Part shown: positions 165 through 19,917 of the stretch, piece after piece
Layout: every line of letters begins with the position of its first letter
Position numbering within the stretch: position 1 is the stretch's first letter
Virus record (IMG/VR): IMGVR_UViG_3300042806_000370
DNA from: a virus
Strand: one strand, 5' to 3'
DNA: 38,011 bases
Notes under the pieces: generated by a model
The model's input: the letters and a program-made list of their open reading frames with translations, nothing else
What the model was told of the DNA's origin: nothing
Databases searched by the model: none
Translations under genes and position numbers: made by a program

Positions 165-200
165 AAACTGTCACGGCGGCGCAAGCCGCCGTGACAGTTT
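165..200. repeat. Cassette palindrome 1 (AAACTGTCACGGCGGC-GCAA-GCCGCCGTGACAGTTT)
   Basis: Perfect 16-bp inverted repeat with 4-nt loop; first of 7 copies with conserved AACTGTCACG/CGTGACAGTT arms. Confidence 0.95.
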
Positions 201-207
201 CCTCAAA

Positions 208-275
208 GTCCGATAACGATTATTTCGTGATTCGTGGGCGGCAATTTGCAAAGCGTTTGAACGCTATGGTATGAT
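208..275 (+). promoter_or_regulatory. Early promoter 1: GTCCGATAACG box, TTGCAA -35, extended -10 TGgTATGAT
   Basis: Box 208-218, -35 246-251, 18-nt spacer, -10 270-275; same layout in 6 cassettes. Confidence 0.85.
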
Positions 276-342
276 GGTCGCATGGCCATACCACTCCGGT
301 ACGGCGAATCAACGCCCCAGTTGGGGCAGAAGGCGAGTAGAT

Positions 343-690
343 ATGAAGAATCACGCACGGGAATCGGCTCTGTGGATCATCTTCACCCGCATCAACGAAA
401 TGCGGAGCGTCGTCGGCATGACCGAAGAGCGCGCCGCGCGCTCCGAGGTGATGGGGGCCATCAGCATGGCCTACCACGTCGGGGCGATCCCGGCGAAGGA
501 GATGGACTACCTCTACGACGTTCTCTTCTCGCAGGAAGAGAAGTACTTCTTCCCCTTCCGCGACGGAGGCTTCCGCGTCTACGACGACGCATGGCGTTCT
601 CGCTACGAGGCGTGGTTGGCTTCCGGTAGGTTGCCGACCGATGCCGAGGCCCTCCCGGAACACATCACGGCACTCGCCGTTGCGGGGTGA
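343..690 (+). CDS. Hypothetical early phage protein (MKNHARES..., 115 aa)
   Basis: ORF downstream of promoter, AGAAGG SD-like element; track start 271 lies inside the -10 box. Confidence 0.8.
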   Translation: MKNHARESALWIIFTRINEMRSVVGMTEERAARSEVMGAISMAYHVGAIPAKEMDYLYDVLFSQEEKYFFPFRDGGFRVYDDAWRSRYEAWLASGRLPTDAEALPEHITALAVAG

Positions 691-702
691 TACCCCGCAC
701 AC

Positions 703-745
703 ACCCCCCACCCCAACCCGGGTGGGGGGTTTATTTTTATTTTTT
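703..745 (+). terminator. Rho-independent terminator, cassette 1
   Basis: ACCCCCCACCC/GGGTGGGGGGT stem followed by T tract. Confidence 0.85.
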
Positions 746-751
746 CGCAGA

Positions 752-786
752 AAACTGTCACGCGCGCTTTGCGCGCGTGACAGTTT
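752..786. repeat. Cassette palindrome 2
   Basis: AAACTGTCACGCGCGC-TTT-GCGCGCGTGACAGTTT. Confidence 0.95.
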
Positions 787-793
787 GCGTAGT

Positions 794-861
794 GTCCCAT
801 AACGATTATTCTACGATTCTTGCGCCGTAGTTTGCAAAGCGTTTGATCGGCATGGTATGAT
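794..861 (+). promoter_or_regulatory. Early promoter 2
   Basis: GTCCCATAACG 794-804, TTGCAA 832-837, TATGAT 856-861. Confidence 0.85.
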
Positions 862-931
862 TGTTGCATAGCCATACCACTCCGGTACGGCACAGTTCTA
901 ACCGCCCCAAGTCAGGGGCAGGAGAGTTTCG

Positions 932-1270
932 ATGGCTCGTAATCTCAATCTGTCGGTTCCCGCTATGCTCGTCAACATGCTTGCCAACGCCGTCCGTGGC
1001 GGTGAGCGCATCAACGCCATCGACATGATGGCGAACCTGCACTTGGTGCAGGACGAGTTGTCCTGCTTCGGCTTCTCTGCCGAGTTCTGGAAGGCTGCGG
1101 CGGCGGCGTACACGCACCGCCTGCCCAAGCGGCCGCGCGGCACTTACGCCGCGCTTCGCCACCGTCTCGATGCCTGCCCCGAGTGGCAGGAGTGGAGCAA
1201 GCGCAGCGCACCGGGTCGCCTCGTCAACGAGGATGGCATCATCATCGCGCCCATGTCGGCGCAGGGCTGA
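932..1270 (+). CDS. Hypothetical early phage protein (112 aa)
   Basis: AGGAGAG SD before ATG; GC3-rich codons. Confidence 0.8.
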   Translation: MARNLNLSVPAMLVNMLANAVRGGERINAIDMMANLHLVQDELSCFGFSAEFWKAAAAAYTHRLPKRPRGTYAALRHRLDACPEWQEWSKRSAPGRLVNEDGIIIAPMSAQG

Positions 1271-1336
1271 TCTTTCACGGTGGATCCCTCCCCTACGGGG
1301 GAGGGTCCACCATACGCACACCAACGGAGTACCACC

Positions 1337-1513
1337 ATGAATCTCGCTCTCGTCGCACTGTCTGCCCTCACCACGGGATTCCTGCTCACTTGGATGGCGT
1401 TGACAACGCCATCCAACCCGATCATCCTGATTATCGGCACGGTTCTCTGCGCCGTGCCGATGGTCCGCGCGCTGGTCCTGACCGCGATGCGGTCGATGGG
1501 CTACCCGCACTGA
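1337..1513 (+). CDS. Small membrane protein, two predicted TM helices (58 aa)
   Basis: GGAG SD; MNLALVALSALTTGFLLTW...PIILIIGTVLCAVPMV. Confidence 0.7.
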   Translation: MNLALVALSALTTGFLLTWMALTTPSNPIILIIGTVLCAVPMVRALVLTAMRSMGYPH

Positions 1514-1555
1514 ACTACATTCTTCGTCGGTGGGTGGTTCCCACACGAAGAATGG

Positions 1556-1585
1556 CCCCCGCCCTAACCAGGCGGGGGTTTATTT
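1556..1585 (+). terminator. Rho-independent terminator, cassette 2
   Basis: CCCCCGCC-CTAACCA-GGCGGGGG plus T tract. Confidence 0.8.
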
Positions 1586-1600
1586 GTAAATTTATCGAAA

Positions 1601-1633
1601 AACTGTCACGCGCGCTTTGCGCGCGTGACAGTT
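1601..1633. repeat. Cassette palindrome 3
   Basis: AACTGTCACGCGCGC-TTT-GCGCGCGTGACAGTT. Confidence 0.95.
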
Positions 1634-1641
1634 CTCGCAGA

Positions 1642-1709
1642 GTCCGATAACGGCAATATCACGATTCTCGCGCGGCAGTTTGCAAAGCGTTTGAACGGCG
1701 TGGTATGAT
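1642..1709 (+). promoter_or_regulatory. Early promoter 3
   Basis: GTCCGATAACG 1642, TTGCAA 1680-1685, TATGAT 1704-1709. Confidence 0.85.
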
Positions 1710-1764
1710 CGTTTCATCGCCAAGCCATTCCGGCAAGGCACACACACGAAAGGAAAGTGGTCAC

Positions 1765-2097
1765 ATGACCAACAACGAAACCGTTATGCGTGAGGGGATC
1801 AGCGTTCTCCTCAAGTCCTCCCGCACCTACTTCGATGCGTTCAACGAGATGCACATGAAGGGCGCGGACACCTGCCGCTCCGTTCTCTCCACCGTGAAGT
1901 CGATCCTCGACTTCGCCGACACCATCGCGGATCCCAAGGGTCAGGAAGATCTGATCCGCCTCTGCGGCCAGTTGCAGCGCGATCTGCTGCCTCTCGCCCA
2001 AGCAGGTCTGGATACCGGGCTGCGCGTCGATACTGCCTGTGACAACATGGCAGAGTTCTACGAACAGAACCATGAGGTTCTGGACACCATTCGCTGA
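1765..2097 (+). CDS. Hypothetical helical early protein (110 aa)
   Basis: GAAAGGA SD upstream of ATG 1765. Confidence 0.8.
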   Translation: MTNNETVMREGISVLLKSSRTYFDAFNEMHMKGADTCRSVLSTVKSILDFADTIADPKGQEDLIRLCGQLQRDLLPLAQAGLDTGLRVDTACDNMAEFYEQNHEVLDTIR

Positions 2098-2157
2098 TTC
2101 GTGTGTGGGAGGGGGGATGTTCCCCCCTCCCTCTTTCACTCCAACAGAAGGAACATC

Positions 2158-2544
2158 ATGGATCCTGTCATCGGCATCGTGATCAATGTGAACGGCAACA
2201 TCGATCTGCTCAAGTTCTCCAACATCCAGGGCTATCAGGAAACCGTCGGCGGCTACTTCGAATGCCTCGGGTTCGGCCCGAACCACCGCGCGCTCGTCAA
2301 CGATTCCGGGTGGTCTGACGGCCTCCCGGCCAATCCGCTTGCCACCCTGCTGTGGAAGCACTACAGCGGCGATGAGCGCGCGTGGTCGGTCGATGATCAG
2401 TTGTACGGCCCGGTGATCATCGTCGGCAAGATCAACCCCGTCACCCTTGAGGATGACGGCGGGGATTACGCTCCCAGCGCGGAAATTTGGTTCACGGCAA
2501 TGATGTTGAAGGCCGTGCGCCTACCCACCGATCTGCACTTCTGA
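2158..2544 (+). CDS. DUF3846-like protein
   Basis: YQETVGGYFE, VNDSG..GLPANPLAT and D.LYGPVIIVG match my recollection of the family pattern; GAAGGA SD. Confidence 0.7.
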   Translation: MDPVIGIVINVNGNIDLLKFSNIQGYQETVGGYFECLGFGPNHRALVNDSGWSDGLPANPLATLLWKHYSGDERAWSVDDQLYGPVIIVGKINPVTLEDDGGDYAPSAEIWFTAMMLKAVRLPTDLHF

Positions 2545-2555
2545 CACGCAACCGC

Positions 2556-2591
2556 AAACCCACCACCCCTAACCGGGTGGTGGGTTTATTT
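2556..2591 (+). terminator. Rho-independent terminator, cassette 3
   Basis: AAACCCACCACCC-CTAACC-GGGTGGTGGGTTT plus T tract. Confidence 0.85.
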
Positions 2592-2606
2592 GTAAATTTA
2601 CCAAAA

Positions 2607-2639
2607 AACTGTCACGGCAGCAAAGCTGCCGTGACAGTT
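2607..2639. repeat. Cassette palindrome 4
   Basis: AACTGTCACGGCAGC-AAA-GCTGCCGTGACAGTT. Confidence 0.95.
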
Positions 2640-2647
2640 CTGCCACC

Positions 2648-2715
2648 GTCCGATAACGACTATTTCGTGATTCTCGCGTGGTGGTTTGCAAAGCGTTTGA
2701 TCGGCGTGGTATGAT
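2648..2715 (+). promoter_or_regulatory. Early promoter 4
   Basis: GTCCGATAACG 2648, TTGCAA 2686-2691, TATGAT 2710-2715. Confidence 0.85.
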
Positions 2716-2761
2716 TGTGACATCGAAACGGCCCCACATGGGGCAGAAAGGAACGAGGCTT

Positions 2762-3040
2762 ATGAAAGTTGTGTTGACCGCGAAATCGTCATGTGATTGT
2801 TGCCACGGCAAGGGCTACTTTGTCGAGAGTCATGGAGATGCTTTCTCCCCAGGGGAGGACATGGTCTGTGATTGTCCCTTTGAGGACGCAACGGACGATC
2901 AGATTGCCGCGATGGAAAGCGGCGTGTCTTGGGTGATTCTTCCCGATCCCTCCTGTGAGCAGGAAGATGTGGATGAGTACGATTGGGATGACGATTGCTT
3001 CGACTGTGATTCGGAACCGGACTACGATTTCCCTCTCTGA
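2762..3040 (+). CDS. Small zinc-finger-like protein with acidic tail (92 aa)
   Basis: CDCCHGKG...CDC motif; D/E-rich C-terminus; GAAAGGA/GAGG SD. Confidence 0.7.
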   Translation: MKVVLTAKSSCDCCHGKGYFVESHGDAFSPGEDMVCDCPFEDATDDQIAAMESGVSWVILPDPSCEQEDVDEYDWDDDCFDCDSEPDYDFPL

Positions 3041-3052
3041 AAAGGAAACGAA

Positions 3053-3451
3053 ATGCACACCGATGACATTCAGACCGTGTTTGATATGTTGACCGAGGTT
3101 CGTGAATCGGGCATCAACAAGATCGTGCGCGAGGAGAACTGTGATCGCTTCGCGGCTACCGTGAAGTGGGACACCCACCTCGCCCCGTTGGTTACCGACC
3201 GCGAGAAGTTCGCGCTGATCGGTATTCATCTTCCTGCGGATTTCGTTCCGCAGAACGATGCCGAAGCGATGTCGTTCAACGACCGCGTGTTCGCCGCGTA
3301 CAAGATGTGGGGGGACGAAGTGATCGCGTATGATCACCTGTCTCCCACCGACCTGACTCGCGTTCTTCAGATGGTGTTGGATGACAAGGTTCACCTTGTT
3401 CCTCCCACCAAGGACTGTACGCAGTACATCGACTTGGCGTTCTCCAAGTAA
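3053..3451 (+). CDS. Hypothetical protein (132 aa)
   Basis: AAAGGA SD, operon position. Confidence 0.8.
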   Translation: MHTDDIQTVFDMLTEVRESGINKIVREENCDRFAATVKWDTHLAPLVTDREKFALIGIHLPADFVPQNDAEAMSFNDRVFAAYKMWGDEVIAYDHLSPTDLTRVLQMVLDDKVHLVPPTKDCTQYIDLAFSK

Positions 3452-3523
3452 TCCACCGTTTCGTTCCACTCCCCTGCCACCCTAATCAGGTGGCAGGGGA
3501 GACTTCTGACAAGAAAGGCCACA

Positions 3524-3829
3524 ATGAGTTACCAGAAGTTTTACGATCCCACCGACATCAACAACAAGGTTCGGTGGTATTCACACAACCACGGAGTGAG
3601 GTTCACGTTCGACAACGGCTATTCTGTTTCAATCATTCCGGGATCGGATGGCGACTGCATGGAATGCGCCATCTTCAATCCTTCGGGTGAGATGGAAACC
3701 GACGAACACGGATTCGAATTCATCATGATGCAGCCGGATCGGTTGTCCTCGCTCCTCGCTGATGTTCAATCCCGAACAGACCAGAACGAGATTTTCGGTC
3801 TGAAGCCAACGGACACCTTCACCGACTGA
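3524..3829 (+). CDS. Hypothetical phage protein (FTFDNGYSVSII motif)
   Basis: GAAAGG SD; F.F.NGY.vSvi pattern recalled from small phage proteins. Confidence 0.75.
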   Translation: MSYQKFYDPTDINNKVRWYSHNHGVRFTFDNGYSVSIIPGSDGDCMECAIFNPSGEMETDEHGFEFIMMQPDRLSSLLADVQSRTDQNEIFGLKPTDTFTD

Positions 3830-3832
3830 ATG

Positions 3833-3863
3833 AAAAGCCACCCCTAACGGGGTGGTTTTTTTT
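3833..3863 (+). terminator. Rho-independent terminator, cassette 4
   Basis: GCCACCCC-TAAC-GGGGTGGT plus T tract. Confidence 0.85.
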
Positions 3864-3879
3864 GTGTTTTTTTCTCAAA

Positions 3880-3912
3880 AACTGTCACGCGCGCTTTGCG
3901 CGCGTGACAGTT
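3880..3912. repeat. Cassette palindrome 5
   Basis: AACTGTCACGCGCGC-TTT-GCGCGCGTGACAGTT. Confidence 0.95.
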
Positions 3913-3941
3913 CTCAACGGTGTTCAATAACTTCTGAAAGC

Positions 3942-4010
3942 GTCCCATAACGACAAAGTTTCAGTTTCTCTGCCGTAGGTTTGCAAAGCGATTGATCGAC
4001 CTGATATGAT
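3942..4010 (+). promoter_or_regulatory. Early promoter 5
   Basis: GTCCCATAACG 3942, TTGCAA 3981-3986, TGaTATGAT with -10 at 4005-4010. Confidence 0.85.
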
Positions 4011-4058
4011 GGTGACATACCAAACCGCTCCCCAAGTGGAGCAGAAAGTGAGTTAGCA

Positions 4059-5060
4059 TTGGGACACATGATTACTGCCTCTGATAGCGTTGCCATCTAC
4101 AAGTCCAAGGGATGGCACGGCCTTGCGTTGGATCTCAATGAGTACCCGTCGCCTAGCGCGGCCCGTGACATCGTTGCCCCGTGGGATGCGATTGCCAGCA
4201 CCGACATGGCGATCACTCTTCCTACCGGGGATGTGGTCAACACCGATCAGTTCAAGGTTGTCGTTCGTTCTGACAACTTCGAAGTGCTCGGGCTGCACAG
4301 CCATAAGTACAGCCCGGTTCCGGTCGGTGATTTCTTCGACCTGTGCTACGAATTCGGTGCGGCAAATGTCGTGAAGGTTGACTCTGCCGGAACGCTCAAG
4401 GGTGGCAAGGTTCTCTTCTGTTCGCTCAAGGGCGATACGGTTGAGATTGGCACTCGCGGCGACACTAGCACGGGGTATCTGCTCCTGTCCCAGGCTTACG
4501 ACGGAACCATGCCCCTGCGTGGTGATGTCGCAGCCGAACGGACTGTGTGCAACAATACGCTGATGATGAATCACCTTGCGAGTAACTGCGGATTCTCCAT
4601 CCGTCACACTCGCAAGATGGATTCGCGCATGGAAAGCATTCGCCAGTCCATTCAGCGTTGGAAGGATGGGTTCGATGTCAGCGTCAAGGCTGCAAATAAC
4701 CTTGCCATCGCCCCAGTCCGCACCCGTGCGGAGGTCGAAGAGTTCTTCCTGCGGTCGCTTGAGTCGATGTACGGGGTTCTCCCGTCGCCCAACACGAAGG
4801 ACAAGCGTGAGCAGAACACGCTCGTTTGGGCCTCCAACTCTCTCGCGGAGATTGGTGAGTTCTGGAACCGCGAAGAGGCGCAGTTTGGGGCCAATTGGTG
4901 GACTGCGGCGAACGCAGTCACGGCCTACTTGCAGCACAGCGATGAGGCCACTCGCCTTGGCACGAACAGCGAATCCCGCCTGTTCTCTGACATCTACGGT
5001 CAGCAGGGTGAGCGCAAGGGCATGGTGATGAACCTTGCCCAGTCCTACGCTCTCGCCTAA
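4059..5060 (+). CDS. DUF932 (TIGR03299-like phage/plasmid) protein
   Basis: WHGL, AGTLKGGK, YLLLSQAYDG, RTVCNNTL and IRHT motifs; start TTG 4059 or ATG 4068. Confidence 0.85.
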   Translation: MGHMITASDSVAIYKSKGWHGLALDLNEYPSPSAARDIVAPWDAIASTDMAITLPTGDVVNTDQFKVVVRSDNFEVLGLHSHKYSPVPVGDFFDLCYEFGAANVVKVDSAGTLKGGKVLFCSLKGDTVEIGTRGDTSTGYLLLSQAYDGTMPLRGDVAAERTVCNNTLMMNHLASNCGFSIRHTRKMDSRMESIRQSIQRWKDGFDVSVKAANNLAIAPVRTRAEVEEFFLRSLESMYGVLPSPNTKDKREQNTLVWASNSLAEIGEFWNREEAQFGANWWTAANAVTAYLQHSDEATRLGTNSESRLFSDIYGQQGERKGMVMNLAQSYALA

Positions 5061-5076
5061 TCGTTCGGCTTCTTCG

Positions 5077-5111
5077 ACCCACCACCCCTAACGGGGTGGT
5101 GGGTTTCTTTT
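5077..5111 (+). terminator. Rho-independent terminator, cassette 5
   Basis: ACCCACCACCCC-TAAC-GGGGTGGTGGGT plus T tract. Confidence 0.85.
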
Positions 5112-5126
5112 GTAAATTTATCGAAA

Positions 5127-5159
5127 AACTGTCACGGCAGCTTTGCTGCCGTGACAGTT
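5127..5159. repeat. Cassette palindrome 6
   Basis: AACTGTCACGGCAGC-TTT-GCTGCCGTGACAGTT. Confidence 0.95.
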
Positions 5160-5198
5160 CTCACACCCACCCGATCATTTACTTCTGATTCTTGCAGA

Positions 5199-5266
5199 GT
5201 CCCATAACGGCAATTTGCAGAAATGCGACCGTAGGTTTGCAAAGCGTGATGCCGTCGTGGTATGAT
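5199..5266 (+). promoter_or_regulatory. Early promoter 6
   Basis: GTCCCATAACG 5199, TTGCAA 5237-5242, TATGAT 5261-5266. Confidence 0.85.
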
Positions 5267-5302
5267 CTGCGTATGGCAACAGCCATGAAAGGAATGACAA
5301 GT

Positions 5303-5599
5303 ATGGAACCCCGAAAGATCACAGGCACTTATCTTCGTAACTTGCTCAATGAAGGTCGCATCGTTTGCCTTACCTTCATCAAGAGCGATGGTAGTGAGCG
5401 CGACATTCGTTGCACTACCAACCCTTCCCTCATTGACAAGGATCGTCGCGTCAAGGGACTTCGTAAGTCCGCTGACCATCTGATTCCTGTCTTCGATCTT
5501 GAGAAGAAGGAGTGGAGGTCTATTGACGAGGAGACTGACATCGAACTGTTCTCTTCTGAACTCCCCACTCTGTTCGATACGATTGGAGTGAAGGAATGA
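5303..5599 (+). CDS. WYL_2 / SH3 beta-barrel (DUF2693-like) protein
   Basis: LTFIKSDGSER..CT and VFDLEKKEWRS signature; GAAAGGA SD. Confidence 0.8.
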   Translation: MEPRKITGTYLRNLLNEGRIVCLTFIKSDGSERDIRCTTNPSLIDKDRRVKGLRKSADHLIPVFDLEKKEWRSIDEETDIELFSSELPTLFDTIGVKE

Positions 5600-5838
5600 A
5601 AGCAGTAAACATTCGGATTCTTGTCACTCAACAGATTGAAGAGAATTACTTTGCAATTGTTGAGGACAACGATCCGATTCTGACCAAGACTCCCATGACG
5701 CTTGACGCAGGGGATGTCTTTCAAGATTCTCGGTTTCGTTTGTGCGACACCGATGTAAGGCGTATCATGCACACCGACCTAGACTCCATCGATGTGGTGG
5801 AGTGGACTCCCGCAGATGAATTGGAGCAGCGACGATGA
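5596..5838 (+). CDS. Hypothetical protein (80 aa)
   Basis: ATGA overlap with previous gene, GGAG SD. Confidence 0.7.
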   Translation: MKAVNIRILVTQQIEENYFAIVEDNDPILTKTPMTLDAGDVFQDSRFRLCDTDVRRIMHTDLDSIDVVEWTPADELEQRR

Positions 5839-6149
5839 CACCCGAACAACAAATCGAAATTCTTCGCAAGGCCGGGTTCTTTCAGAATGGCGATGACGCT
5901 GTGAGCCTCATTGCCGCATTTGAATCGCTTCAGGGAGAGATCGACTCCCTGAACGAAAAGATTCAGGCTCTCCGAGCCGTGGCGTACTACGATGGTCAGA
6001 AGTTCCCTTGGGAACACCCCACTCTGATCAAGGTTGGCGAACAGCGCAAGGACTACTTGCTGTTCATCGACCCCGATGATCTGTCCGATGCAGAGTATGC
6101 CGAGGCGTATGGCGACGATGAAACCCCCAACAAGGAAGGTGCAGATTGA
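5835..6149 (+). CDS. Hypothetical coiled-coil/acidic protein (104 aa)
   Basis: ATGA overlap, GGAG SD. Confidence 0.75.
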   Translation: MTPEQQIEILRKAGFFQNGDDAVSLIAAFESLQGEIDSLNEKIQALRAVAYYDGQKFPWEHPTLIKVGEQRKDYLLFIDPDDLSDAEYAEAYGDDETPNKEGAD

Positions 6150-6328
6150 AAGAAAAAGAAAAGAATCGTTTGTTCGTTGCAATTCTTTCTGTCGAGGATT
6201 TGCAAAGCGATGTCACCAACGGTTATGTTAGTGCCAAGGACATCGTAGGTCGCCTTGAAGAGATTCACTCGACCCTGTGTACCCTGATTCCCGAACCATC
6301 CATCACCAACCCAGCCAAGGAAAACTGA
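6146..6328 (+). CDS. Hypothetical protein (60 aa, TTG start)
   Basis: TTGA overlap, GAAGGT SD, fills the operon gap. Confidence 0.55.
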   Translation: MKEKEKNRLFVAILSVEDLQSDVTNGYVSAKDIVGRLEEIHSTLCTLIPEPSITNPAKEN

Positions 6329-6475
6329 ATGTTCTACGACGATTACGAAGATTTCGATGTTCCGTACTACAACTATCCCGATTTCGATTCGGATTGGGCG
6401 CAAGAAGTATATTGCGACAATTTCGATGATGACATCTGTTTCGATGATGACACCGAAATGTTCTTCGAAGACTGA
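6329..6475 (+). CDS. Very acidic/aromatic 48-aa peptide (not in ORF track)
   Basis: AAGGA SD; MFYDDYEDFDVPYYNYPDFDSDWAQEVYCDNFDDDICFDDDTEMFFED. Confidence 0.7.
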   Translation: MFYDDYEDFDVPYYNYPDFDSDWAQEVYCDNFDDDICFDDDTEMFFED

Positions 6476-6504
6476 TTTCCACTTTCAAACAAAAGGACAA
6501 GACA

Positions 6505-7134
6505 ATGCCAAACTGGTGCTCAAACACTCTCTCAATCAACGGCCCCCAAGAAGCCATCGACCGTTTCCATGCTGACCGTAAGGCAGCACTTACGGCCAAG
6601 GACTGCGACTTCGATCAGGTCATCACCTTCAATCAGGTGCTTCCCCTGCCCAAGGAGTTGCTGAACTCGACCAAGGAATACTCCCGGATGACCGAGGAGC
6701 AGATTCGTGCGACCGCGTTCGCAAACAACTGGTCTGATGAGACTCTTCAGGATAATCTGAAGCACGCTCTGACCCCGGAGATGATCGCTGAATCGAATCG
6801 TTTGATTCAGAAGTACGGCCACGACAACTGGTACGACTGGTGTATCGCCAACTGGGATACCAAGTGGGATGCTGTTCGCTCCCACATCGATGAGGACGGT
6901 GCAAACATTCACTTTGAAACGGCATGGAGTCCGCCGACCAAGGTGATTCGGGAACTGGCATCGGCCTACCCGGAACTCAAGTTCATCCATTCGTATTCCC
7001 TTGAGGGGGAGAACGGGGACTGGGAGTTTACCTACTTCACCGAGGACGATACCCTCATGGTGTCGTGGGAGTACACCGCGATGAGTGGTGAGGCAATTCC
7101 TGCCGACGAACTTGACGAACACACGATCCCGTGA
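6505..7134 (+). CDS. YubB/DUF1281 ferredoxin-like domain protein
   Basis: MPNWCSN, NWYDWCIANWDTKWD and FETAWSPP motifs. Confidence 0.85.
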   Translation: MPNWCSNTLSINGPQEAIDRFHADRKAALTAKDCDFDQVITFNQVLPLPKELLNSTKEYSRMTEEQIRATAFANNWSDETLQDNLKHALTPEMIAESNRLIQKYGHDNWYDWCIANWDTKWDAVRSHIDEDGANIHFETAWSPPTKVIRELASAYPELKFIHSYSLEGENGDWEFTYFTEDDTLMVSWEYTAMSGEAIPADELDEHTIP

Positions 7135-7199
7135 TATACTGGTAGGTGGGGGAGGGGGTGTTCCCCTCCCCCAAGGTTTCAAACAAAAAGGACAAGACA

Positions 7200-7451
7200 A
7201 TGACAACTGCTCCGATCCAACTTGGCATCGACCGCAACAACCCCGACCGATGCTTCATCACCGTTCCGTGCGACATTGCTTACATGAAGTCGCAGAGGGA
7301 AGTTCTGTATGCGATGGTCAACGCAGATTCGGCGTTGACTCCCAATGAGAAGCAGCAGATGCTGCACCTCGTTGGGTTCCTCGACCACTTCATCCACGGC
7401 GTGTACTCCGTCACGGCGGAATACCACACCGCCAACCGTAGCCGCTACTGA
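7200..7451 (+). CDS. Hypothetical protein (83 aa)
   Basis: AAAAGGACAAGACAATG leader as before the 6505 gene. Confidence 0.75.
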   Translation: MTTAPIQLGIDRNNPDRCFITVPCDIAYMKSQREVLYAMVNADSALTPNEKQQMLHLVGFLDHFIHGVYSVTAEYHTANRSRY

Positions 7452-7474
7452 ACCAAACAAAAAGGACAAAAAAA

Positions 7475-7957
7475 ATGACATTCATCCGCGAAGAATCCGC
7501 TTTCGTTCTTCCCCTCCCCAAGTCCCCGATCATCTGCAACACAGATGGCAGGGGGTACTGGTCGTGTGAAGCCCGTGCTGTTCGGGTCAACAAGGTGGTG
7601 CTTTCGATCCACCGTGCCGAAGTGAACCTGTACCAATACCATCCCGTTCTCTATGTGAATGTGGATGCCTACTTCCCCAAGAGTTCTTGGGACACCAATG
7701 AGCACGGTCTGATCTACACGGACAGGCTGTGGCTCAAGGAGTTCAACAAAGCCATGAAGGGAATCAATCGCCTTCTGTTTAGTTCGGGGATCTACTACAC
7801 AGAGCAGGGAATGCAGGAACGGGATTATGTGTCCATGTCGATGACCCTGACCTCGTTCCCGCAGATCAAGCGGTTCGATTGTGGTCTTACCAAGATCAAG
7901 AACCTGAAGTGGTTGAAGGATGAGCAGACCATCTTCGGTGGGGGGTGTTGCCGATGA
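7475..7957 (+). CDS. Hypothetical phage protein (160 aa)
   Basis: TDGRGYWS, GLIYTD and YTEQGMQ..DYVS motifs; AAAGGA SD. Confidence 0.8.
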   Translation: MTFIREESAFVLPLPKSPIICNTDGRGYWSCEARAVRVNKVVLSIHRAEVNLYQYHPVLYVNVDAYFPKSSWDTNEHGLIYTDRLWLKEFNKAMKGINRLLFSSGIYYTEQGMQERDYVSMSMTLTSFPQIKRFDCGLTKIKNLKWLKDEQTIFGGGCCR

Positions 7958-8208
7958 CAAAAACCAAAACAAAAAAGCCCAAGCAGTACCACTACAATTT
8001 TGAATTCAATTCCGGAAGGTACTCTGATGTGTCTTGGACACTTGAGGATGAGTTTCCGGAGTGGTTTGCGGGATCAGGTACACTTTTAGGCCGCAACGAG
8101 TACGATGTCTCGTTCATCTGCACTCCCGCCGAGGTGAAGACGGTCGTTGACTTCATCAAGAAGACTTGGAAGGAACTGAAGTTCACCCAAGCGAAGTGGG
8201 ATCTGTAA
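7954..8208 (+). CDS. Hypothetical protein (84 aa)
   Basis: ATGA overlap; last gene before terminator. Confidence 0.7.
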   Translation: MTKTKTKKPKQYHYNFEFNSGRYSDVSWTLEDEFPEWFAGSGTLLGRNEYDVSFICTPAEVKTVVDFIKKTWKELKFTQAKWDL

Positions 8209-8222
8209 CAATCATTTCTTGT

Positions 8223-8261
8223 CCCCCCCGTTGCTGCCGTGTGGCAGCGCGGGGGTTTTTT
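8223..8261 (+). terminator. Rho-independent terminator, cassette 6
   Basis: GC stem CCCCCG.TGCTGCC/GGCAGCGCGGGGG plus T tract. Confidence 0.75.
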
Positions 8262-8277
8262 ATTTGGAATTGTTGAG

Positions 8278-8312
8278 AAACTGTCACGGACGCGCAGCGT
8301 CCGTGACAGTTT
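8278..8312. repeat. Cassette palindrome 7 (terminal copy, no downstream promoter)
   Basis: AAACTGTCACGGACGC-GCA-GCGTCCGTGACAGTTT. Confidence 0.95.
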
Positions 8313-8401: not shown

Positions 8402-8671
8402 TTAGGCGTACTTATGGTATTCATTATACCCCTTATGAGGGTTATTTTTTGTTTGATATTTCTCCACCCCATACGCATCATTTAATTTGCGATTTGGGTA
8501 AATATCATTTATAAGTTTTTGCTTTAGAATTTTTTGCTTTGTGATTAGATCCATTGGTTCTTCTGGAGCCTTTCTCAACCCCTCTATTAGCTCCTGTAGC
8601 AATGCCTGGGCTGATGTGGGTAGATACTGCTCCAACTCCTCTACAATGCGGTCTATGCGATCCTGATTCAT
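8402..8671 (-). CDS. Hypothetical protein, paralog of 8668-8949
   Basis: Shares EELEQYLPTSAQALLQELIE motif with neighbour; ATGA overlap. Confidence 0.7.
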   Translation of the reverse strand: MNQDRIDRIVEELEQYLPTSAQALLQELIEGLRKAPEEPMDLITKQKILKQKLINDIYPNRKLNDAYGVEKYQTKNNPHKGYNEYHKYA

Positions 8672-8949
8672 TTAATCGAATACTCCTTGCATTGTCCCCA
8701 ATTACTCTGCCAAGTATTTTGAATGAAATCTGCCGCATCACCCTTGATTTGAGAACAAAAACCAGAAAAAATAATCTGGCCCCATGAATTTTTCTTCACA
8801 TCCGTCAAAATCAACCCTTCAATGAGTTGATTTGGACTGGCTGCTGCTGGAATCTTCGTTTCAATCAATTCATTCAGCTTGACCTGAAGCGAGGTGGGGA
8901 GGTACTGTTCCATTTCTTCCTGAAGTTGTCGAATCTCATGTGGAGTCAT
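8668..8949 (-). CDS. Hypothetical protein, probably leaderless (MTPHEIRQ...)
   Basis: EEMEQYLPTSLQVKLNELIE; ATG 8 nt downstream of TATAAT. Confidence 0.7.
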   Translation of the reverse strand: MTPHEIRQLQEEMEQYLPTSLQVKLNELIETKIPAAASPNQLIEGLILTDVKKNSWGQIIFSGFCSQIKGDAADFIQNTWQSNWGQCKEYSIK

Positions 8950-8956
8950 ACCCTCC

Positions 8957-9062
8957 ATTATACCACAGAGAGGTATCGAATGTCAAATTTTACTTTCAGA
9001 AATTATTCGTGGGGGGTGCAAAAACTACCCTGATTATACCATATGGGGGTATTGCGTGTCAA
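8957..9062 (-). promoter_or_regulatory. Two tandem consensus sigma70 promoters
   Basis: TTGACA-N18-TATAAT with extended TG at 8986-8957 and 9062-9033. Confidence 0.85.
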
Positions 9063-9328: not shown

Positions 9329-10417
<1,089 letters not shown>

Positions 10418-10500: not shown

Positions 10501-10833
10501 TTAACGCCATCGGCCAAACTGTAGCGCATATCTATAACCATTTAGTATATTAGTGTACTGAATATACTGGGCCTTTAATTGTTCACAATTATTCGTTTGT
10601 TCACAATTTGCCAACTGTTCTAATATATCATTGATCATACTTTCATATTGGGCTATCATTTGATAAACATTACCAGTCATATACCTATCCTGCATTATTT
10701 CTCCAGTATCATATACTAAAAATTCATCGGTATCTGGAGCCTCTAATGGCATTGGTGGTGTTTTAGGCGTTATGGCTGCTTCTACCAATCTCTGGTATGT
10801 TCTGGCGACTTGGTTTATTGAGTTTTTATCCAT
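10501..10833 (-). CDS. MDKNSINQVARTYQRLVE-leader family protein (putative internal head protein)
   Basis: Shared leader; CEQTNNC helical hairpin. Confidence 0.85.
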   Translation of the reverse strand: MDKNSINQVARTYQRLVEAAITPKTPPMPLEAPDTDEFLVYDTGEIMQDRYMTGNVYQMIAQYESMINDILEQLANCEQTNNCEQLKAQYIQYTNILNGYRYALQFGRWR

Positions 10834-10837
10834 AAAA

Positions 10838-11152
10838 TTAATATCCGGTTCCTCTTAAAAAGTTAGTATAATATGCTATTAACCAATTTAAACGGTCGAT
10901 TTGCTCCTGCGTGCATATTCCAGGATTAGACATACAATAATCTAACATATCTACTGCTTGATTATAATATGCTTGATTCGCAGCCCCTAAATTTGGATAT
11001 GTTGGACCAGTATCAAATGTTCTTGGCATATACGGTACATCTTCTGTTGCTGGTTGCATTTCAACAGAAGAAGATAATTGCGGTGATGGTTGAGCTGCTT
11101 CTACCAATCTCTGGTATGTTCTGGCGACTTGATTTATTGAGTTTTTATCCAT
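10838..11152 (-). CDS. MDKNSINQVARTYQRLVE-leader family protein
   Basis: Shared leader; CMSNPGIC; AATAAATA upstream. Confidence 0.85.
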   Translation of the reverse strand: MDKNSINQVARTYQRLVEAAQPSPQLSSSVEMQPATEDVPYMPRTFDTGPTYPNLGAANQAYYNQAVDMLDYCMSNPGICTQEQIDRLNWLIAYYTNFLRGTGY

Positions 11153-11194
11153 ATTTTATTTATTAATTGTAAAATCCTAATCTTCTTCTATATT

Positions 11195-11401
11195 TTATTT
11201 GTAAAAATAATGTACGGGAGGAAGTGGCCGTGGTGATGGTGGATCTTGTGGAGGAAACGGATGTATTGGTTGTGGTGAAGGTTCTGGCTTTGGTTTTGGG
11301 TTTGGTGGATCTTGTGGGGGAATTGGTGGACCAAAAGAAGAATATTTTGCAACTCTTTTAGCATATGTCTTAGCCACCTGATTTATGGCGTTTTTATCCA
11401 T
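11195..11401 (-). CDS. Divergent leader-family member, Pro-rich (68 aa)
   Basis: MDKNAINQVAKTYAKRVA; PPQDPP repeated. Confidence 0.75.
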   Translation of the reverse strand: MDKNAINQVAKTYAKRVAKYSSFGPPIPPQDPPNPKPKPEPSPQPIHPFPPQDPPSPRPLPPVHYFYK

Positions 11402-11411
11402 ATTTTATTTA

Positions 11412-11714
11412 TTAATTGTAAAATCCTAATCTTCTTTTATATTGTCTTATGAATTCTTCATATTGAGCTATCTCGGAATCAGAACATGCTCCTGGATTTA
11501 ATTGGCAATTTCTAAGAAGATTCAAATATTGTTCAAATTTTTCATATTCCTTACCAAGTAAAAGTTCTAGCCTCAAATCATCTCTAGTTTGTGGTGGTAG
11601 ATTTGGCTCTGGCGTATCAAAACCTTCCATAGGCTCTGGAAGCATTTGTGGAGAAGCTGCTTCTACCAATCTCTGGTATGTTCTGGCAACTTGATTTATT
11701 GAGTTTTTATTCAT
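11412..11714 (-). CDS. MNKNSINQVARTYQRLVE-leader family protein
   Basis: Shared leader; CQLNPGAC. Confidence 0.85.
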   Translation of the reverse strand: MNKNSINQVARTYQRLVEAASPQMLPEPMEGFDTPEPNLPPQTRDDLRLELLLGKEYEKFEQYLNLLRNCQLNPGACSDSEIAQYEEFIRQYKRRLGFYN

Positions 11715-11724
11715 ATATTATTCT

Positions 11725-12225
11725 TTATACGGTTGATACCGGATCTGGTCTAGCATCAAAATGTATTTGATATAATAAATTTCGTAACTGTGAAACACGC
11801 TGATTAATTGTATTCACTAAAAGATTTGTATATTCTGGCGCACACATACCAGATAGATTACAATCATTTAAGGATGATAATGCGCTGTGCAATTCTTCAT
11901 ACAGTTCAAAATACAAGGCAATATTGTTAATAACATTTGGATGTTCACTATCACCATATGTTTCTCTAACTTCTTTGGGACTCATTGGAGTAGATGTACT
12001 TGGAATTGAAGTAATGTTTGGTCCAGGTCCATCTGGGCCGTATAAGTACCAAAGCCAGATATCATATGCTTGATCTTGGACAACAGGATTTGTAACTAAA
12101 TCATAATAAGTTTGTCCCACTGATTGAGCAATATTGCCCATGTTTGGATTTATTTGTTGTACATTTTTAGATTCAACCAATCTCTGGTATGTTCTGGCAA
12201 CTTGATTTATTGAGTTTTTATCCAT
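11725..12225 (-). CDS. MDKNSINQVARTYQRLVE-leader family protein (166 aa)
   Basis: Shared leader; CNLSGMC; TATAAATA upstream. Confidence 0.85.
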   Translation of the reverse strand: MDKNSINQVARTYQRLVESKNVQQINPNMGNIAQSVGQTYYDLVTNPVVQDQAYDIWLWYLYGPDGPGPNITSIPSTSTPMSPKEVRETYGDSEHPNVINNIALYFELYEELHSALSSLNDCNLSGMCAPEYTNLLVNTINQRVSQLRNLLYQIHFDARPDPVSTV

Positions 12226-12553: not shown

Positions 12554-13084
12554 ATGATATCCTTCAAACAATTTTTAATTGAAAGACTAAATCCTACATC
12601 TATTCCTGCAAATGAACTATACCCAGGAATAAATCCAAATGCATGGCAAGATCCAGCAACTAATGTAGATCATCCGCGCCCAACTGGATTTGATGAGTAT
12701 GGTGATCCAATTGAAGATTTAAATGATGTGGATGGAGATGGCCAAACAAATGAAGATGATCTTGATGACGATAATGACGGAGTTCAAGATTATCTAGATC
12801 TTGATGACGATAATGACGGAATTCCAGACTGGGTTGATCCAGATTATCTTGAAGCTCAAGGAATAGAGCCTGGAAGCGAATTTGATGATACGGATAGTGA
12901 TGGAATACCTGATGAATTTGATGAAGATCATGATGGCGATGGTATTCCAAATGCCCAAGACAAAGATTATAGAAATAGAATGCGTGAGATGTTAGCACCA
13001 GGAGTAATCGATTATATGCAAAATCAACCACCTCCAGGTCAACCTATAGCTCCACCGCCATCAAATAATCAAAGAGGTGGTTGA
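12554..13084 (+). CDS. DxDxDG Ca-binding repeat protein with CTS-like leader MISFKQFLIE
   Basis: DDDNDGVQDYLDLDDDNDGIPD; same leader as the 9329 gene. Confidence 0.85.
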   Translation: MISFKQFLIERLNPTSIPANELYPGINPNAWQDPATNVDHPRPTGFDEYGDPIEDLNDVDGDGQTNEDDLDDDNDGVQDYLDLDDDNDGIPDWVDPDYLEAQGIEPGSEFDDTDSDGIPDEFDEDHDGDGIPNAQDKDYRNRMREMLAPGVIDYMQNQPPPGQPIAPPPSNNQRGG

Positions 13085-13136: not shown

Positions 13137-13922
13137 TTATCCTCTTGAAAGAGTTCCTTGCCATTGCCTAAATGCCGTGATAAATTGTTGCAGTGCTGTA
13201 ACACCTAATTGTGATCTAATTCCCTGAAGAATTGGACTGGCAACATTATTACCAAAACTTTGATCGTTTGTTATACTTAAATACCAATTCATCCAGTTTA
13301 TCTGACCAGTATTATAATCAATATACTGATCTGCCACTCCAAGCTCTTCAAACATACTGTAAATTAGTGACATTATATTTGGTGGTAAATAACCAGGAAT
13401 GTATAATGGACCACCCGTTCCATTTCCTTGTCCCCCTCTACCACCTCTACCAGATTGTCTTCCATATCCTTGTGGGGAATACATACTATCTTTTGCATAA
13501 CCAGTTAGGGGTCCACCAGTTTGTGGGGTAGAAACTCTCTCAACACCTGAATCTGTAGGGGTTTGAGTTGCCTCAGAAATCAATCTTCTAAGTCTATAGT
13601 TTTGTTCATTTACTTTTCTATAATTACCGGAATTGCTATACAATTTCATTAAACTATCAATATAATCTTGACTGCACCTTCCGGGATTTTGGTTGCAATA
13701 AGCCAATTGCTGTAAAATAGTATTAAGCGTATCAGTAAATGATGGTCTAGCAGGACTTGGATCATCCATACTTGGTTCTTCTGGTTCAAACGAAGGCATA
13801 GGTAAAACTATAGGTGGTTTTGGATTTTGTGCCTCAGAAATCAATCTTCTAAGTCTATAGTTTTGTTCTGTGAGTTGTTGAATTTGTCTTTTTAAATGTA
13901 AATTTTCTGTGAATGATGCCAT
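13137..13922 (-). CDS. Putative internal polyprotein with duplicated EQNYRLRRLISEA leader
   Basis: Motif occurs twice; CNQNPGRC; GATAAATA and AAAGGA upstream. Confidence 0.85.
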   Translation of the reverse strand: MASFTENLHLKRQIQQLTEQNYRLRRLISEAQNPKPPIVLPMPSFEPEEPSMDDPSPARPSFTDTLNTILQQLAYCNQNPGRCSQDYIDSLMKLYSNSGNYRKVNEQNYRLRRLISEATQTPTDSGVERVSTPQTGGPLTGYAKDSMYSPQGYGRQSGRGGRGGQGNGTGGPLYIPGYLPPNIMSLIYSMFEELGVADQYIDYNTGQINWMNWYLSITNDQSFGNNVASPILQGIRSQLGVTALQQFITAFRQWQGTLSRG

Positions 13923-13943
13923 ATTATGTCCTTTATCTATTTA

Positions 13944-15740
13944 TCAATACCAGCGATTGTAGTTTTCTGAGATCATGTTCATGTAAGTTTTTGCAACTTC
14001 ATTTACTTCTTGACCTTTCTGTGGAACAACCCATCTTCTTCGTTTTCTATCATATACTGCTCCCTCACCTTCGCCCTTATAAACTCTCTTACCTTCAGGT
14101 TCAGCACCCCTGGGCAAGAATCCTGCTGCTACATCTCTTGCGTCTGCTGCTACATCTTGAGCAAATTTTTCTCCAGGAATACCCACGGGTTCTTCTACTG
14201 GTGGTTTTGGTTTACGAACCGCTGATGGGTTTCCTACAACTGGAGTTTTGCTTGCTCTCGATCTTCTAGCTTTTTGTGCTCTAAGAGCGGTAACAGCAAA
14301 GCCTAAATCGGATCCTCTACCAGGAGCTGGTTCTTCTCCTCTTGGAACAGGTAAACGAGGAGGAACATCTCCAATAGTTACTCCAGTTTTTTCCATTGCT
14401 CTTGAAACCAGTTTATCTTCTCTTCCGAGTGGTCCAACTGAACGTGGAAGCCGAGGATTGGATGGATTTCTTCTTCCGGTTCTAATTCTTTCTTCTTGTG
14501 AAGTTGTAGCAGCCATGACATCGCTAACTAGACCCAATGCACCTGGCTTATTGACATCTATACCTCTAAGAACTCCTTTAGCTGCTCTGAGAACGGGTAC
14601 TTCTCCTCCTCCTGCTGCTCTTAGTTTACCAATAGTTGCTTTTTCACCTCTAATAATCTTTTTAAGTGCTCCTCTTACTCTTTTACTTGTTCTACCGGAC
14701 CTTCGAAGTGAATCTTTTGTGACTGTTGTATCGGCAGTACCAACCTGGGATACTCCGGGTTCCATTGATGTTTCTGCAAATTTTCCAGGGAATTTTGCAC
14801 CATGTTCTGCTACGCCCTTAGCAAATACTCGTCTTCCAAATTCAGCTTCCTGTTCTGGAGTCATCATGCTATATGATTGCTGACCTATATTTGCTCTTCT
14901 TCTTTGTCTTGCACTAGGTGCTGGAGCGGTTCCTCTTGAAGTTCCTCCAATTTGTCTTAGAAGATCTTCTAGTCCTTCTTGTCTTCTTCTTCCGGCAGCA
15001 GCAACTCTAGCAGCCTTTAATGATCTTGCTTCATCTGCAAAAGCTGCATCTTTTTGTGCCTTTACTACTCTATATTCTGGACCAAACTGTGGGTTATTTG
15101 CTAATTCATCTCCAAAATAATCTTCAGTTCCGCCATCAGTTGGATCAAGTATTCTTCCCACTTGTGCTGCTTGTCCTGCACTAACATCTCTTTGGCTACT
15201 CCACGCAGGAACTTGATCTTCCACTCTAGCATCTCTATAACCAGCTGCACCTCGTCTTGTTCTCAATGATTGCATGATAGAGGCAACAGTTGGATCTTCT
15301 CCTTGAGCTACTGATCTTGGATTTGGAATTTGTACTTTTTGACCGACACTCATCGCATCAACGGCAGACTGAACTGCTCCTCTCACATAACCTGGAGCAT
15401 CAAATCCTGGTTGAGCACTTTTGCTCGTTGCTATTTCACGGCCCTTTGCAGCTGCATCTTCTTTTTGTTTTTTTATTACCTTTTTGGTAACTCCAACTCC
15501 CATTTCTCTGCGAGTTTGTGTTCTTTTGATTTTTTCCTGAGTGGTTAGTTGTCTAGCTGGTTTCTTGGCTGGTTTCTTTGAAGACGAGACAACCGTGCCA
15601 CGCTTAACAAGCTTTCCCCTTTTGGTCTTCTCCTCTTCGACTATGAAAGAAGTGAGAGAATTTTGTTCTCTGATTAAATATTTTAGTTGTTCTTCAAGAA
15701 GATTAATTTTTGCCTGTAGCTCAGGAATGAATGATGACAT
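13944..15740 (-). CDS. Large basic (R/K/A/G-rich) putative internal head protein (598 aa)
   Basis: TATAAATA and AAGGAG upstream; coiled-coil N-terminus. Confidence 0.85.
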   Translation of the reverse strand: MSSFIPELQAKINLLEEQLKYLIREQNSLTSFIVEEEKTKRGKLVKRGTVVSSSKKPAKKPARQLTTQEKIKRTQTRREMGVGVTKKVIKKQKEDAAAKGREIATSKSAQPGFDAPGYVRGAVQSAVDAMSVGQKVQIPNPRSVAQGEDPTVASIMQSLRTRRGAAGYRDARVEDQVPAWSSQRDVSAGQAAQVGRILDPTDGGTEDYFGDELANNPQFGPEYRVVKAQKDAAFADEARSLKAARVAAAGRRRQEGLEDLLRQIGGTSRGTAPAPSARQRRRANIGQQSYSMMTPEQEAEFGRRVFAKGVAEHGAKFPGKFAETSMEPGVSQVGTADTTVTKDSLRRSGRTSKRVRGALKKIIRGEKATIGKLRAAGGGEVPVLRAAKGVLRGIDVNKPGALGLVSDVMAATTSQEERIRTGRRNPSNPRLPRSVGPLGREDKLVSRAMEKTGVTIGDVPPRLPVPRGEEPAPGRGSDLGFAVTALRAQKARRSRASKTPVVGNPSAVRKPKPPVEEPVGIPGEKFAQDVAADARDVAAGFLPRGAEPEGKRVYKGEGEGAVYDRKRRRWVVPQKGQEVNEVAKTYMNMISENYNRWY

Positions 15741-15767
15741 ATATTTTCTCCTTGATATTTATAAAAG

Positions 15768-15797
15768 AAAACCCCCACCGGGTTTGGTGGGGGTAGT
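15768..15797 (-). terminator. Rho-independent terminator
   Basis: ACCCCCACC/GGTGGGGGT stem, T tract on minus strand. Confidence 0.7.
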
Positions 15798-15825
15798 TCT
15801 TTGTAATAGTAAATTATTGTTTCTT

Positions 15826-16299
15826 TTAACTGCTACTCCATCCCCAAGAGTTAGAGCCGAGATAAGTTGGAGCCCATGTATATGTGCGGTGTAATTCTCC
15901 GTTTTTGTAATATTGTACAACGGCTGGTGGTCCAGGAGAATAGACATATGTGTGGACTCCCGCAGTATAAGTATATACTCCATTTTCATAGGAACCTTCT
16001 CTCATTATTTGTCCTAAAGTTGTTTGTCTAATACCTTGATTGGGTCCCGGAATAGAAGGATCTTGAGTTGTACTCATTGTATACCTACCATCTGGATTTG
16101 TACCACCATATTGTCCAAGAGGTCCTTGACTAGGTGTTTGAGTATCATCAGTAGGACCCATTAACAAATCATTCGATGGTGCAGCTTCCAATAAGTATCT
16201 TGCTCTTCTTCTTAAATTATTGTTCTGCTCCTGAAGGTTTCTAATTTGATTCTCAAGAGCGTTAATTCTTTGTTGTAGTACGTTTGTAAATGTTGACAT
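15826..16299 (-). CDS. MSxFT coiled-coil-leader protein (157 aa)
   Basis: TATAAATA and AAGGAG upstream; leader ends RYLLE-A. Confidence 0.85.
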   Translation of the reverse strand: MSTFTNVLQQRINALENQIRNLQEQNNNLRRRARYLLEAAPSNDLLMGPTDDTQTPSQGPLGQYGGTNPDGRYTMSTTQDPSIPGPNQGIRQTTLGQIMREGSYENGVYTYTAGVHTYVYSPGPPAVVQYYKNGELHRTYTWAPTYLGSNSWGWSSS

Positions 16300-19914: not shown

Positions 19915-19917
19915 ATT

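Follow-up and report, generated by a model that had tools for sequence, protein, structure and literature searches.

A terminator-linked palindrome with fixed arms in PeSL-type early-gene modules of a probable T4-like phage lineage

Introduction

Promoter-early stem-loop (PeSL) cassettes have been described in the T4-type phages RB49/phi1, T4/PST and KVP40/nt-1 (PMC2839356, PMC4122927). They are characterized by repeated modules of a terminator and a sigma-70-like promoter, set among small unknown genes in the variable early region of the genome; between relatives the modules come and go and the genes are regrouped. Mini-circles that arise when modules recombine with each other are a further mark of the PeSL type. 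An analogous organization is found at positions 165–8312 of a 38,011-nucleotide (nt) stretch of the virus record IMGVR_UViG_3300042806_000370, hereafter the window; counts given for the window cover the whole stretch. This early-gene array contains five modules in which a predicted terminator stands just before a predicted sigma-70-like promoter, and it lies in a variable region of small genes of a phage whose link to the T4 type is indirect: 14 of the 18 open reading frames (ORFs) scanned have no Pfam or PHROG family, the other four being DUF3846, DUF932, WYL_2 and DUF1281_C. The array differs in one respect. Whereas the PeSL texts, in the available parts, give a single stem-loop, the terminator, here a second, sequence-fixed palindrome stands behind the terminator, even where no promoter follows. 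The strings "palindrom" and "cruciform" do not occur in the available text of PMC2839356, in which Arbiol et al. leave open whether a specific DNA-binding protein reads the PeSL modules. An earlier note on this DNA, made from the sequence alone, had put it forward as a candidate for an undescribed system. Its cassette layout is the known PeSL layout; the terminator-linked palindrome is undescribed, as a literature search beyond whose coverage most subscription journals lay returned no paper describing it.

Several other systems bear a resemblance to the palindrome. Repetitive extragenic palindromes and bacterial interspersed mosaic elements (REP/BIME) are extragenic palindromes of 20–40 base pairs (bp) that are situated downstream of genes, whether the neighbouring ORFs are tandem or convergent, and whose stems show complementary changes; they have been proposed as gyrase sites that relieve transcription supercoils (PMC3733652). 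The window palindromes are likewise extragenic, of this size and downstream of genes. They differ in being perfect rather than bulged, in lacking G-T pairs and a terminal unpaired tag (GTAG or CGTC; absent from the flank profile), in lying past a terminator and in occurring as seven copies in one phage region; no RAYT/TnpA-REP protein (PF01797) is present in four partial records of the lineage. In its role the palindrome is likely most similar to REP/BIME.

The attC sites of integrons share a cassette-bounding hairpin, an AAC/GTT foot and a top of variable length (PMC5027507). The attC R box RYYYAAC/GTTRRRY is not found here, as the positions beyond AAC vary and do not pair, and extrahelical bases and an unpaired central spacer are absent. 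Unlike integron cassettes, the phage cassettes have their own promoters and the scored breakpoints lie off the site; neither an integron integrase nor a tyrosine recombinase is present among the 33 window ORFs scanned. Phage N4 also has inverted repeats in its early region that combine conserved stem bases with free but paired ones; its promoters have a stem of 5–7 bp, a conserved 3-nt loop and a fixed distance to the start site (PMC4496689). The palindromes vary freely in loop and length and are accompanied by host-type promoters; no virion RNA polymerase is found among the window ORFs scanned. The T5 iss, a signal that stops injection, lies in a terminal repeat and has DnaA boxes (10.1101/866236). 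Lastly, template switching, first seen in T4, homogenises the arms and inverts the spacers of inverted repeats whose arms exceed ~9 bp, in the absence of any function (PMC5941160, PMC8604942). The traces that it leaves, namely perfect arms, paired changes of several bases and reversible flips of the spacer, are all seen here; it is a mutational process, and leaves the invariance of the arms across lineages and the link to terminators unexplained.

Results and Discussion

Seven palindromes with invariant arms

The earlier note had claimed seven perfect inverted repeats with invariant outer arms, variable inner stems and a loop flipped between two copies, and all of this is borne out (Table 1). 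The palindromes measure 33–36 bp, with arms of 15–16 bp, loops of 3–4 nt and DNA folding z-scores from −6.5 to −9.0. When up to one mismatch is allowed, the 10-nt outer arm has 14 matches in the window, all exact and all inside the seven palindromes, against 1.70 ± 1.41 in 100 shuffles of the window; none is found elsewhere in the 38 kb. The inner stems are GCGGC, CGCGC (three copies), GCAGC (two) and GACGC, and copies 4 and 6 are exact reverse complements of each other. The proposed covariation holds in so far as the stems pair; as the window contains just four distinct stems, it rests there on few events. In run X9 a loose end at the site of copy 4, of which the left arm alone is visible, suggests the CGCGC stem type. 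The reading of the tops as GNA mini-hairpins fails, since a GNNA or GNA loop is confined to copies 1 and 7.

Fixed arms and a free, paired core in relatives

A scan of metagenomes for exact arms returned 104 stretches, reduced to 102 loci (L006–L107, of which L052 and L053 are one contig). Homologs of a window early protein occur in 30 of the 102, and there the core between the arms is self-pairing at 34 of 34 arm pairs, versus 25 of 72 elsewhere. A further relative, L156, was located by protein alone and also carries the element. A hand-picked set of 32 lineage loci plus the window (33 sources) comprises 54 sites and 22 distinct cores; duplicates, contig-end half copies and two fold-backs (L029 and L096, read as assembly strain chimeras because their arms are only 95% alike) were left out.

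The arms are exact over 10 nt in 61 of 62 cases from 31 distinct contexts while the flanks vary; the seeds were picked by exact arms, and a relaxed search (up to two mismatches per arm) gave one degenerate pair only. This constancy extends across phages whose DUF932 proteins are ~70% identical and whose other early proteins are ~40% identical. The core from arm to arm is 8, 10, 13–18, 34, 37 or 41 nt long, covering all helical phases. A rigid dimer on duplex DNA cannot suit such variable spacing of its half-sites, so a core of 8–41 nt rules out a rigid dimeric operator, and the earlier note's preference for a boundary element over a plain fixed-spacing operator is upheld. No bulge is present in 18 of the 22 cores, the foot is always perfect, and the cores of 34–41 nt hold nested hairpins. 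Loops are of 3–8 nt or longer and show no conservation: GNA or GNNA occurs in two of the 22 cores, besides two nested GAA loops, and the link to mini-hairpins and N4 promoters drawn in the earlier note is not sustained.

The element appears restricted to the lineage, because none of 18 viral loci with a member of the 7475–7957 protein family has an arm pair. A single-protein search returned no DUF932 loci in viral contigs. A scan of GTDB gave 48 loci, none with homologs of the early genes of the lineage; in each of two planctomycete genomes a single site is present, so that no host repeat family is seen. In one Planctomycetota genome (L153, 810–844) a single, fully paired palindrome with the same arms precedes a T run, and its flanks hold two short paralogous ORFs that are presumably pilin-like.

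Further observations concern the surroundings of the arms. A −35-like hexamer (TTGACA or TTGCAA) with no −10 box adjoins the outside of 21 of 62 arms in relatives, and is not seen in the window copies. Four loci (L001, L002, L004 and L014) proved to be unrelated contigs rich in scattered TGTCAC repeats; in L001, an unrelated phage, 11 such repeats on both strands (4850–5150) follow a Walker-A helicase-like gene in an origin-like arrangement. In relatives, the array is bordered on its left by a conserved GGGACCC hairpin block (L053 392–425, L005, L156, L175, L177). It was dropped as an array-border element, as it forms a hairpin of its own and in L177 is present with no array next to it. The same contig has a free-standing endonuclease VII-family ORF (861–1085, minus strand) among genes found at the array borders of other relatives.

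The palindrome follows terminators, not promoters

As the earlier note had it, palindromes 2–6 lie between a terminator and the next promoter: copies 2–7 begin ~24–26 nt past a predicted GC hairpin with a T tail, and copies 1–6 precede a promoter-like site, TTGCAA-18-TATGAT, by 46, 46, 46, 46, 68 and 77 nt. Ahead of each −35 box, at a distance of 27–28 nt, a GTCCSATAACG box is kept, including in the two units whose palindrome is set off from it by 22 and 31 extra bases. Its distance is fixed to the promoter and not to the palindrome, which indicates that the promoter block is one unit and the palindrome another. The extra distances in units 5 and 6 (3913–3980 and 5160–5236) correspond to about two and three helical turns, in two cases only.

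No promoter was detected after copy 7, again as claimed, and this last, promoterless copy is kept in L053, L006, L023, L068 and L070. At 52 of 53 scorable sites from the 33 sources the palindrome lies 14–68 nt past a terminator-like hairpin; the exception is copy 1 of the window. Strong terminators are followed by a palindrome in six of six cases in the window array (at +24 to +26), three of four in L053, one of one in L156 and two of four in L005, as against none of 11 terminator-like matches elsewhere in the window. Promoter-like sites without a palindrome are numerous, both within the arrays and beyond them. The palindrome is tied to terminators, not to promoters. It is not itself a normal terminator: the 9 nt after the stem contain at least six T in just 4 of 31 contexts, whichever strand is taken. 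It is a real, lineage-wide element, a terminator-linked palindrome added to PeSL-type modules. The claim of six cassettes bounded by palindromes holds with corrections: six units exist, but copy 1 has no terminator and the sixth unit (3.1 kb) has an internal promoter-like site (7112–7140) without a palindrome.

A possible DNA hairpin with a foot read by a protein

The cores differ in their pairing from the neighbouring terminators. The 22 cores form 142 Watson–Crick pairs and no G-T pair by DNA rules (by RNA rules, a loop-closing G-U in two), versus G-U pairs in 15 of 31 neighbouring terminators and bulges in 17 of 31; the G-T/G-U contrast gives a Fisher p of 0.003, which is indicative only, as the rows are not independent. 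The guanine-plus-cytosine (GC) content of paired core positions is 0.70 against 0.40 in the flanks, a richness for which copying alone does not account.

The best reading of these observations, held tentatively and at somewhat less than an even chance, is that each palindrome folds as a DNA hairpin and that its foot is bound by a protein, insulating the neighbouring units. The suggestion of a cruciform loaded with a phage protein, made in the earlier note, survives in this form; the fold as DNA and the binding are inferred from sequence. An early unit would be transcribed strongly and stop at its predicted terminator, with the palindrome in the predicted untranscribed gap behind it. There it would fold as a cruciform or as a single-strand hairpin, a protein would bind the invariant 10-bp foot, and the bound hairpin would either block read-through or load a topoisomerase, as proposed for REP/BIME and gyrase. 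Gain, loss and reordering of the array genes would be due to ordinary recombination, partly over the 11–39 nt of identity between modules, with no cutting at the palindromes; template switching, or the resolution of junctions, would flip the loops in passing. Extruding 33 bp at a supercoil density of −0.06 is calculated to free ~23 kcal/mol, which is near the cost, so that a cruciform is possible and not assured; a hairpin in single-stranded DNA may be equally open. Palindromes flank the DUF932 gene in every case in which both of its sides are visible, in the window and in relatives. Its protein would be at most a candidate binder, and has no solved structural relative by sequence.

A number of points weigh against this explanation. 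Near-identical strains account for many of the 54 sites, four long cores have bulges, a contig-end copy in L037 (outside the count) has a 1-nt insertion, and the shortest forms, with stems of 11–12 bp, are marginal for extrusion. Copy 1 of the window has no terminator ahead of it, and the convergent transcription at copy 7 should overwind the DNA and disfavour a cruciform there. The binding protein was not found. A perfect palindrome with 13-bp arms (1390–1416) lies inside a 58-aa ORF (1337–1513) whose homolog in L156 is not palindromic at that place, which suggests that template switching acts in this phage. As template switching also makes pairing and flips, these two are weaker evidence than the earlier note had assumed. 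The argument for a protein-read hairpin rests instead on arms that do not vary, on spacing that does, on the GC-rich core and on the difference from the terminators.

The foremost alternative, which appears unlikely, dispenses with the fold: two independent, inverted protein sites on duplex DNA would form a two-way roadblock, and the core would be kept pairing by template switching. The free spacing fits such monomer sites, and template switching is known to homogenise arms and invert spacers (PMC5941160, PMC8604942). Four comparisons of orthologous sites show a flipped centre (L053 with L084 and L032, L006 with L101, L015 with L043, and L039 with the L017 group); the flip is one of six differences in 7803 nt between L053 and L084 and the single difference in 1988 nt between L053 and L032. 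The clustered TGTCAC repeats near the helicase-like gene of L001 and the bacterial arm pairs with unpaired cores (17 of 30 distinct cores of 10–18 nt) agree with arms that act singly. Among the lineage sites, however, an unpaired core is found in 0 of 34, and neither the GC-rich core nor the nested hairpins of the 34–41-nt cores is explained by this alternative, nor is the retention of G-U pairs and bulges in terminators of similar stem length.

It is improbable that the palindrome works as an RNA hairpin that forms in read-through transcripts and checks leakage, either by terminating transcription a second time or as a cut site of the RNase III type. Its sense-strand position directly past terminators would suit this role, as would the 5–7 T in 9 nt on the antisense side of window copies 1–6 and the T run after the similar Planctomycetota palindrome. 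The T tract is nonetheless scarce over the 31 contexts, interior G-U pairs are lacking in contrast to the terminators, the loop is found in both orientations at one site, and Rfam gives no family at gathering score (four matches are sub-threshold).

Cassettes change, with no enrichment of breakpoints at the palindromes

The earlier note had also proposed shuffling or excision of cassettes at the palindromes. This is not supported: 200 alignments cross a palindrome and extend 100 nt or more to either side of it, homology continues through the palindromes, and most breakpoints fall within or between genes. Of the clusters of homology breakpoints, 29 in L053 and 7 in the window, none lies within 25 nt of a palindrome; with chance expectations of ~1 and ~0.5, respectively, this denotes no enrichment rather than avoidance. 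All 17 joints listed from eight runs (two of them repeated) are at least 55 nt from the palindromes, and five stop just ahead of the last terminator. The contigs of the runs break at palindromes, so joins exactly there would be missed. The joints in run X9 at 3784–3791 and 4365–4454 suggest that in that strain a 90-nt piece of the DUF932 gene was inserted at the end of the upstream gene.

Gene order is mostly conserved in relatives, and modules are gained and lost between the same genes. The WYL_2 gene and the gene at 5596 are neighbours in the window and have a module between them in L053, L018 and L091; the genes at 2762 and 3053 share a unit in the window and are separated in L015; the gene at 3524 lies upstream of the DUF932 gene in the window and downstream in L053; and the gene at 1337 is relocated in L156. 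The exact sequence common to modules, 11–39 nt, would suffice for ordinary T4 recombination to act along the PeSL route.

A recombination site proper, at which an attC-like site-specific recombinase or a resolvase would cut the cruciform and move cassettes, is as improbable as the RNA hairpin. Apart from the AAC...GTT foot with its variable top, which recalls attC, this proposal draws on the varying number of modules and grouping of genes among relatives, on the fast centre flips and on the gp46/47, UvsY and UvsW proteins of the lineage, together with an endonuclease VII-family ORF in record G003. Besides the alignments, breakpoints and joints above and the missing extrahelical bases and central spacer, it is opposed by the uniform direction of all units despite symmetric sites and by the lack of a tyrosine recombinase or Y1 transposase in four records (14–43% complete). 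Hairpin promoters for an N4-like virion RNA polymerase, or T5 iss-like pause signals for DNA entry, are very improbable: the confinement of the palindromes to the early region, the loops of copies 1 and 7 and the richness of T5 iss in palindromes (10.1101/866236) are outweighed by a sigma-70-type promoter of its own in every unit, an invariant part that is the foot and not the loop, a T4-like appearance with the late sigma factor gp55, and an L053 array that has other genes on both sides and no genome end in sight.

A wider picture, which is rather doubtful, would combine these elements: T4-like freshwater phages would use a protein-read hairpin, its 10-bp foot fixed and its top free, to wall off early units, and its cutting as a cruciform would start recombination that regroups nearby anti-host genes, as a phage counterpart of REP and attC and one solution among several to the boundary problem. 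The fixed 10-bp arm offers a defined bait for pull-downs, and the cores of 8 to 41 nt a natural mutant series for telling hairpin from duplex recognition. If the palindrome insulates tandem strong promoters, it would be a compact new insulator part. Since the palindromes break assemblies, the early regions of such phages are under-sampled.

Identity of the phage

The window phage is probably T4-like, by sequence comparison. A CobS/CobT-like pair in the window has its best cultured matches in cyanomyoviruses (57–59% identity), and record G001 carries T4 gp23, gp20, gp17, gp55, gp46/47, gp32, gp44/62, gp45, RegA and UvsY. G001 is linked to the window only indirectly, and the T4-like identity is therefore inferred: its proteins are 74–99% identical to those of L005, which has palindromes and aligns with L015, and L015 shares two early genes with the window. 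The repeat module has no real match among cultured phages. The runs that contain the window stretch belong to subsurface, freshwater, drinking-water, plankton and lake-water sets.

Features of the array and its surroundings

The array has a GC content of 0.54, versus 0.38 in the following 17 kb, and consists of six units of 551–3118 nt with small plus-strand ORFs (Table 1). Contig depth in run X2 is 130–195 within the array (762–8275) and 69–79 outside, and is flat at 77–92 in run X9; a terminal repeat, as seen in virions, or library bias is possible.

Table 1. Palindromes, predicted signals and genes of the early array and the adjoining convergent unit
Feature	Position	Strand	Remarks
Palindrome 1	165–200		stem GCGGC, loop GCAA; no terminator upstream
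Promoter block, unit 1	208–275	+	GTCCSATAACG box, 27–28 nt, then TTGCAA-18-TATGAT
Repeats of promoter block	−35 at 832, 1680, 2686, 3981, 5237		
Unit 1 ORF	343–690	+	no family; in run X9, 352–650 replaced by other sequence
Predicted intrinsic terminator, before copy 2	704–729	+	
Palindrome 2	752–786		stem CGCGC, loop TTT
Unit 2, two ORFs	932–1513	+	58-aa ORF (1337–1513) belongs to another unit in L156
Predicted intrinsic terminator, before copy 3	1556–1578	+	
Palindrome 3	1601–1633		stem CGCGC, loop TTT; 33 nt identical to core of copies 2 and 5
Unit 3, two ORFs	1765–2544	+	second is DUF3846
Predicted intrinsic terminator, before copy 4	2559–2584	+	
Palindrome 4	2607–2639		stem GCAGC, loop AAA
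Unit 4, three ORFs	2762–3829	+	no family; homologs grouped otherwise in relatives
Predicted intrinsic terminator, before copy 5	3838–3855	+	
Palindrome 5	3880–3912		stem CGCGC, loop TTT; precedes DUF932 gene; orthologous site in relatives
Unit 5, DUF932 (TIGR03299-type) gene alone	4068–5060	+	palindromes on both sides, here and in relatives
Predicted intrinsic terminator, before copy 6	5078–5103	+	
Palindrome 6	5127–5159		stem GCAGC, loop TTT; follows DUF932 gene
Unit 6, nine ORFs	5303–8208	+	WYL_2 (5303–5599), DUF1281_C/Api92-like (6505–7134)
Predicted intrinsic terminator, before copy 7	8225–8255	+	
Palindrome 7	8278–8312		stem GACGC, loop GCA; last of the array; between array and convergent minus-strand unit
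Convergent unit past copy 7	8402–9062	−	two small ORFs, consensus sigma-70-type promoters (8986, 9062), syntenic in relatives

In the convergent unit, the protein encoded at 8668–8958 has two homologs only and no family. No tRNA genes were called in the window. Positions 1–20 look like the middle of a further GC-rich palindrome that does not belong to the family, and probably mark an assembly break, a loose end being present before position 7 in run X9.

Beyond the array, the proteins encoded at 9329–10417 and 12554–13084 contain DxDxDG repeats, which we take to be calcium-binding-like, and the former has an acidic tail. Five tandem small ORFs on the minus strand (10501–12225) have a common start, MDKNSINQVARTYQRLVE. 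More long low-complexity ORFs follow at 13137–22542, including one for an MPGMGG-repeat protein (19918–20964). A second GC-rich block, at 26056–30190, accommodates at least seven small paralogous ORFs with a coiled-coil ERDEARR motif, and palindromes are absent from it. A 135-nt direct repeat (87%) is located at 25053–25187 and 30701–30835, just upstream of two HNH genes.

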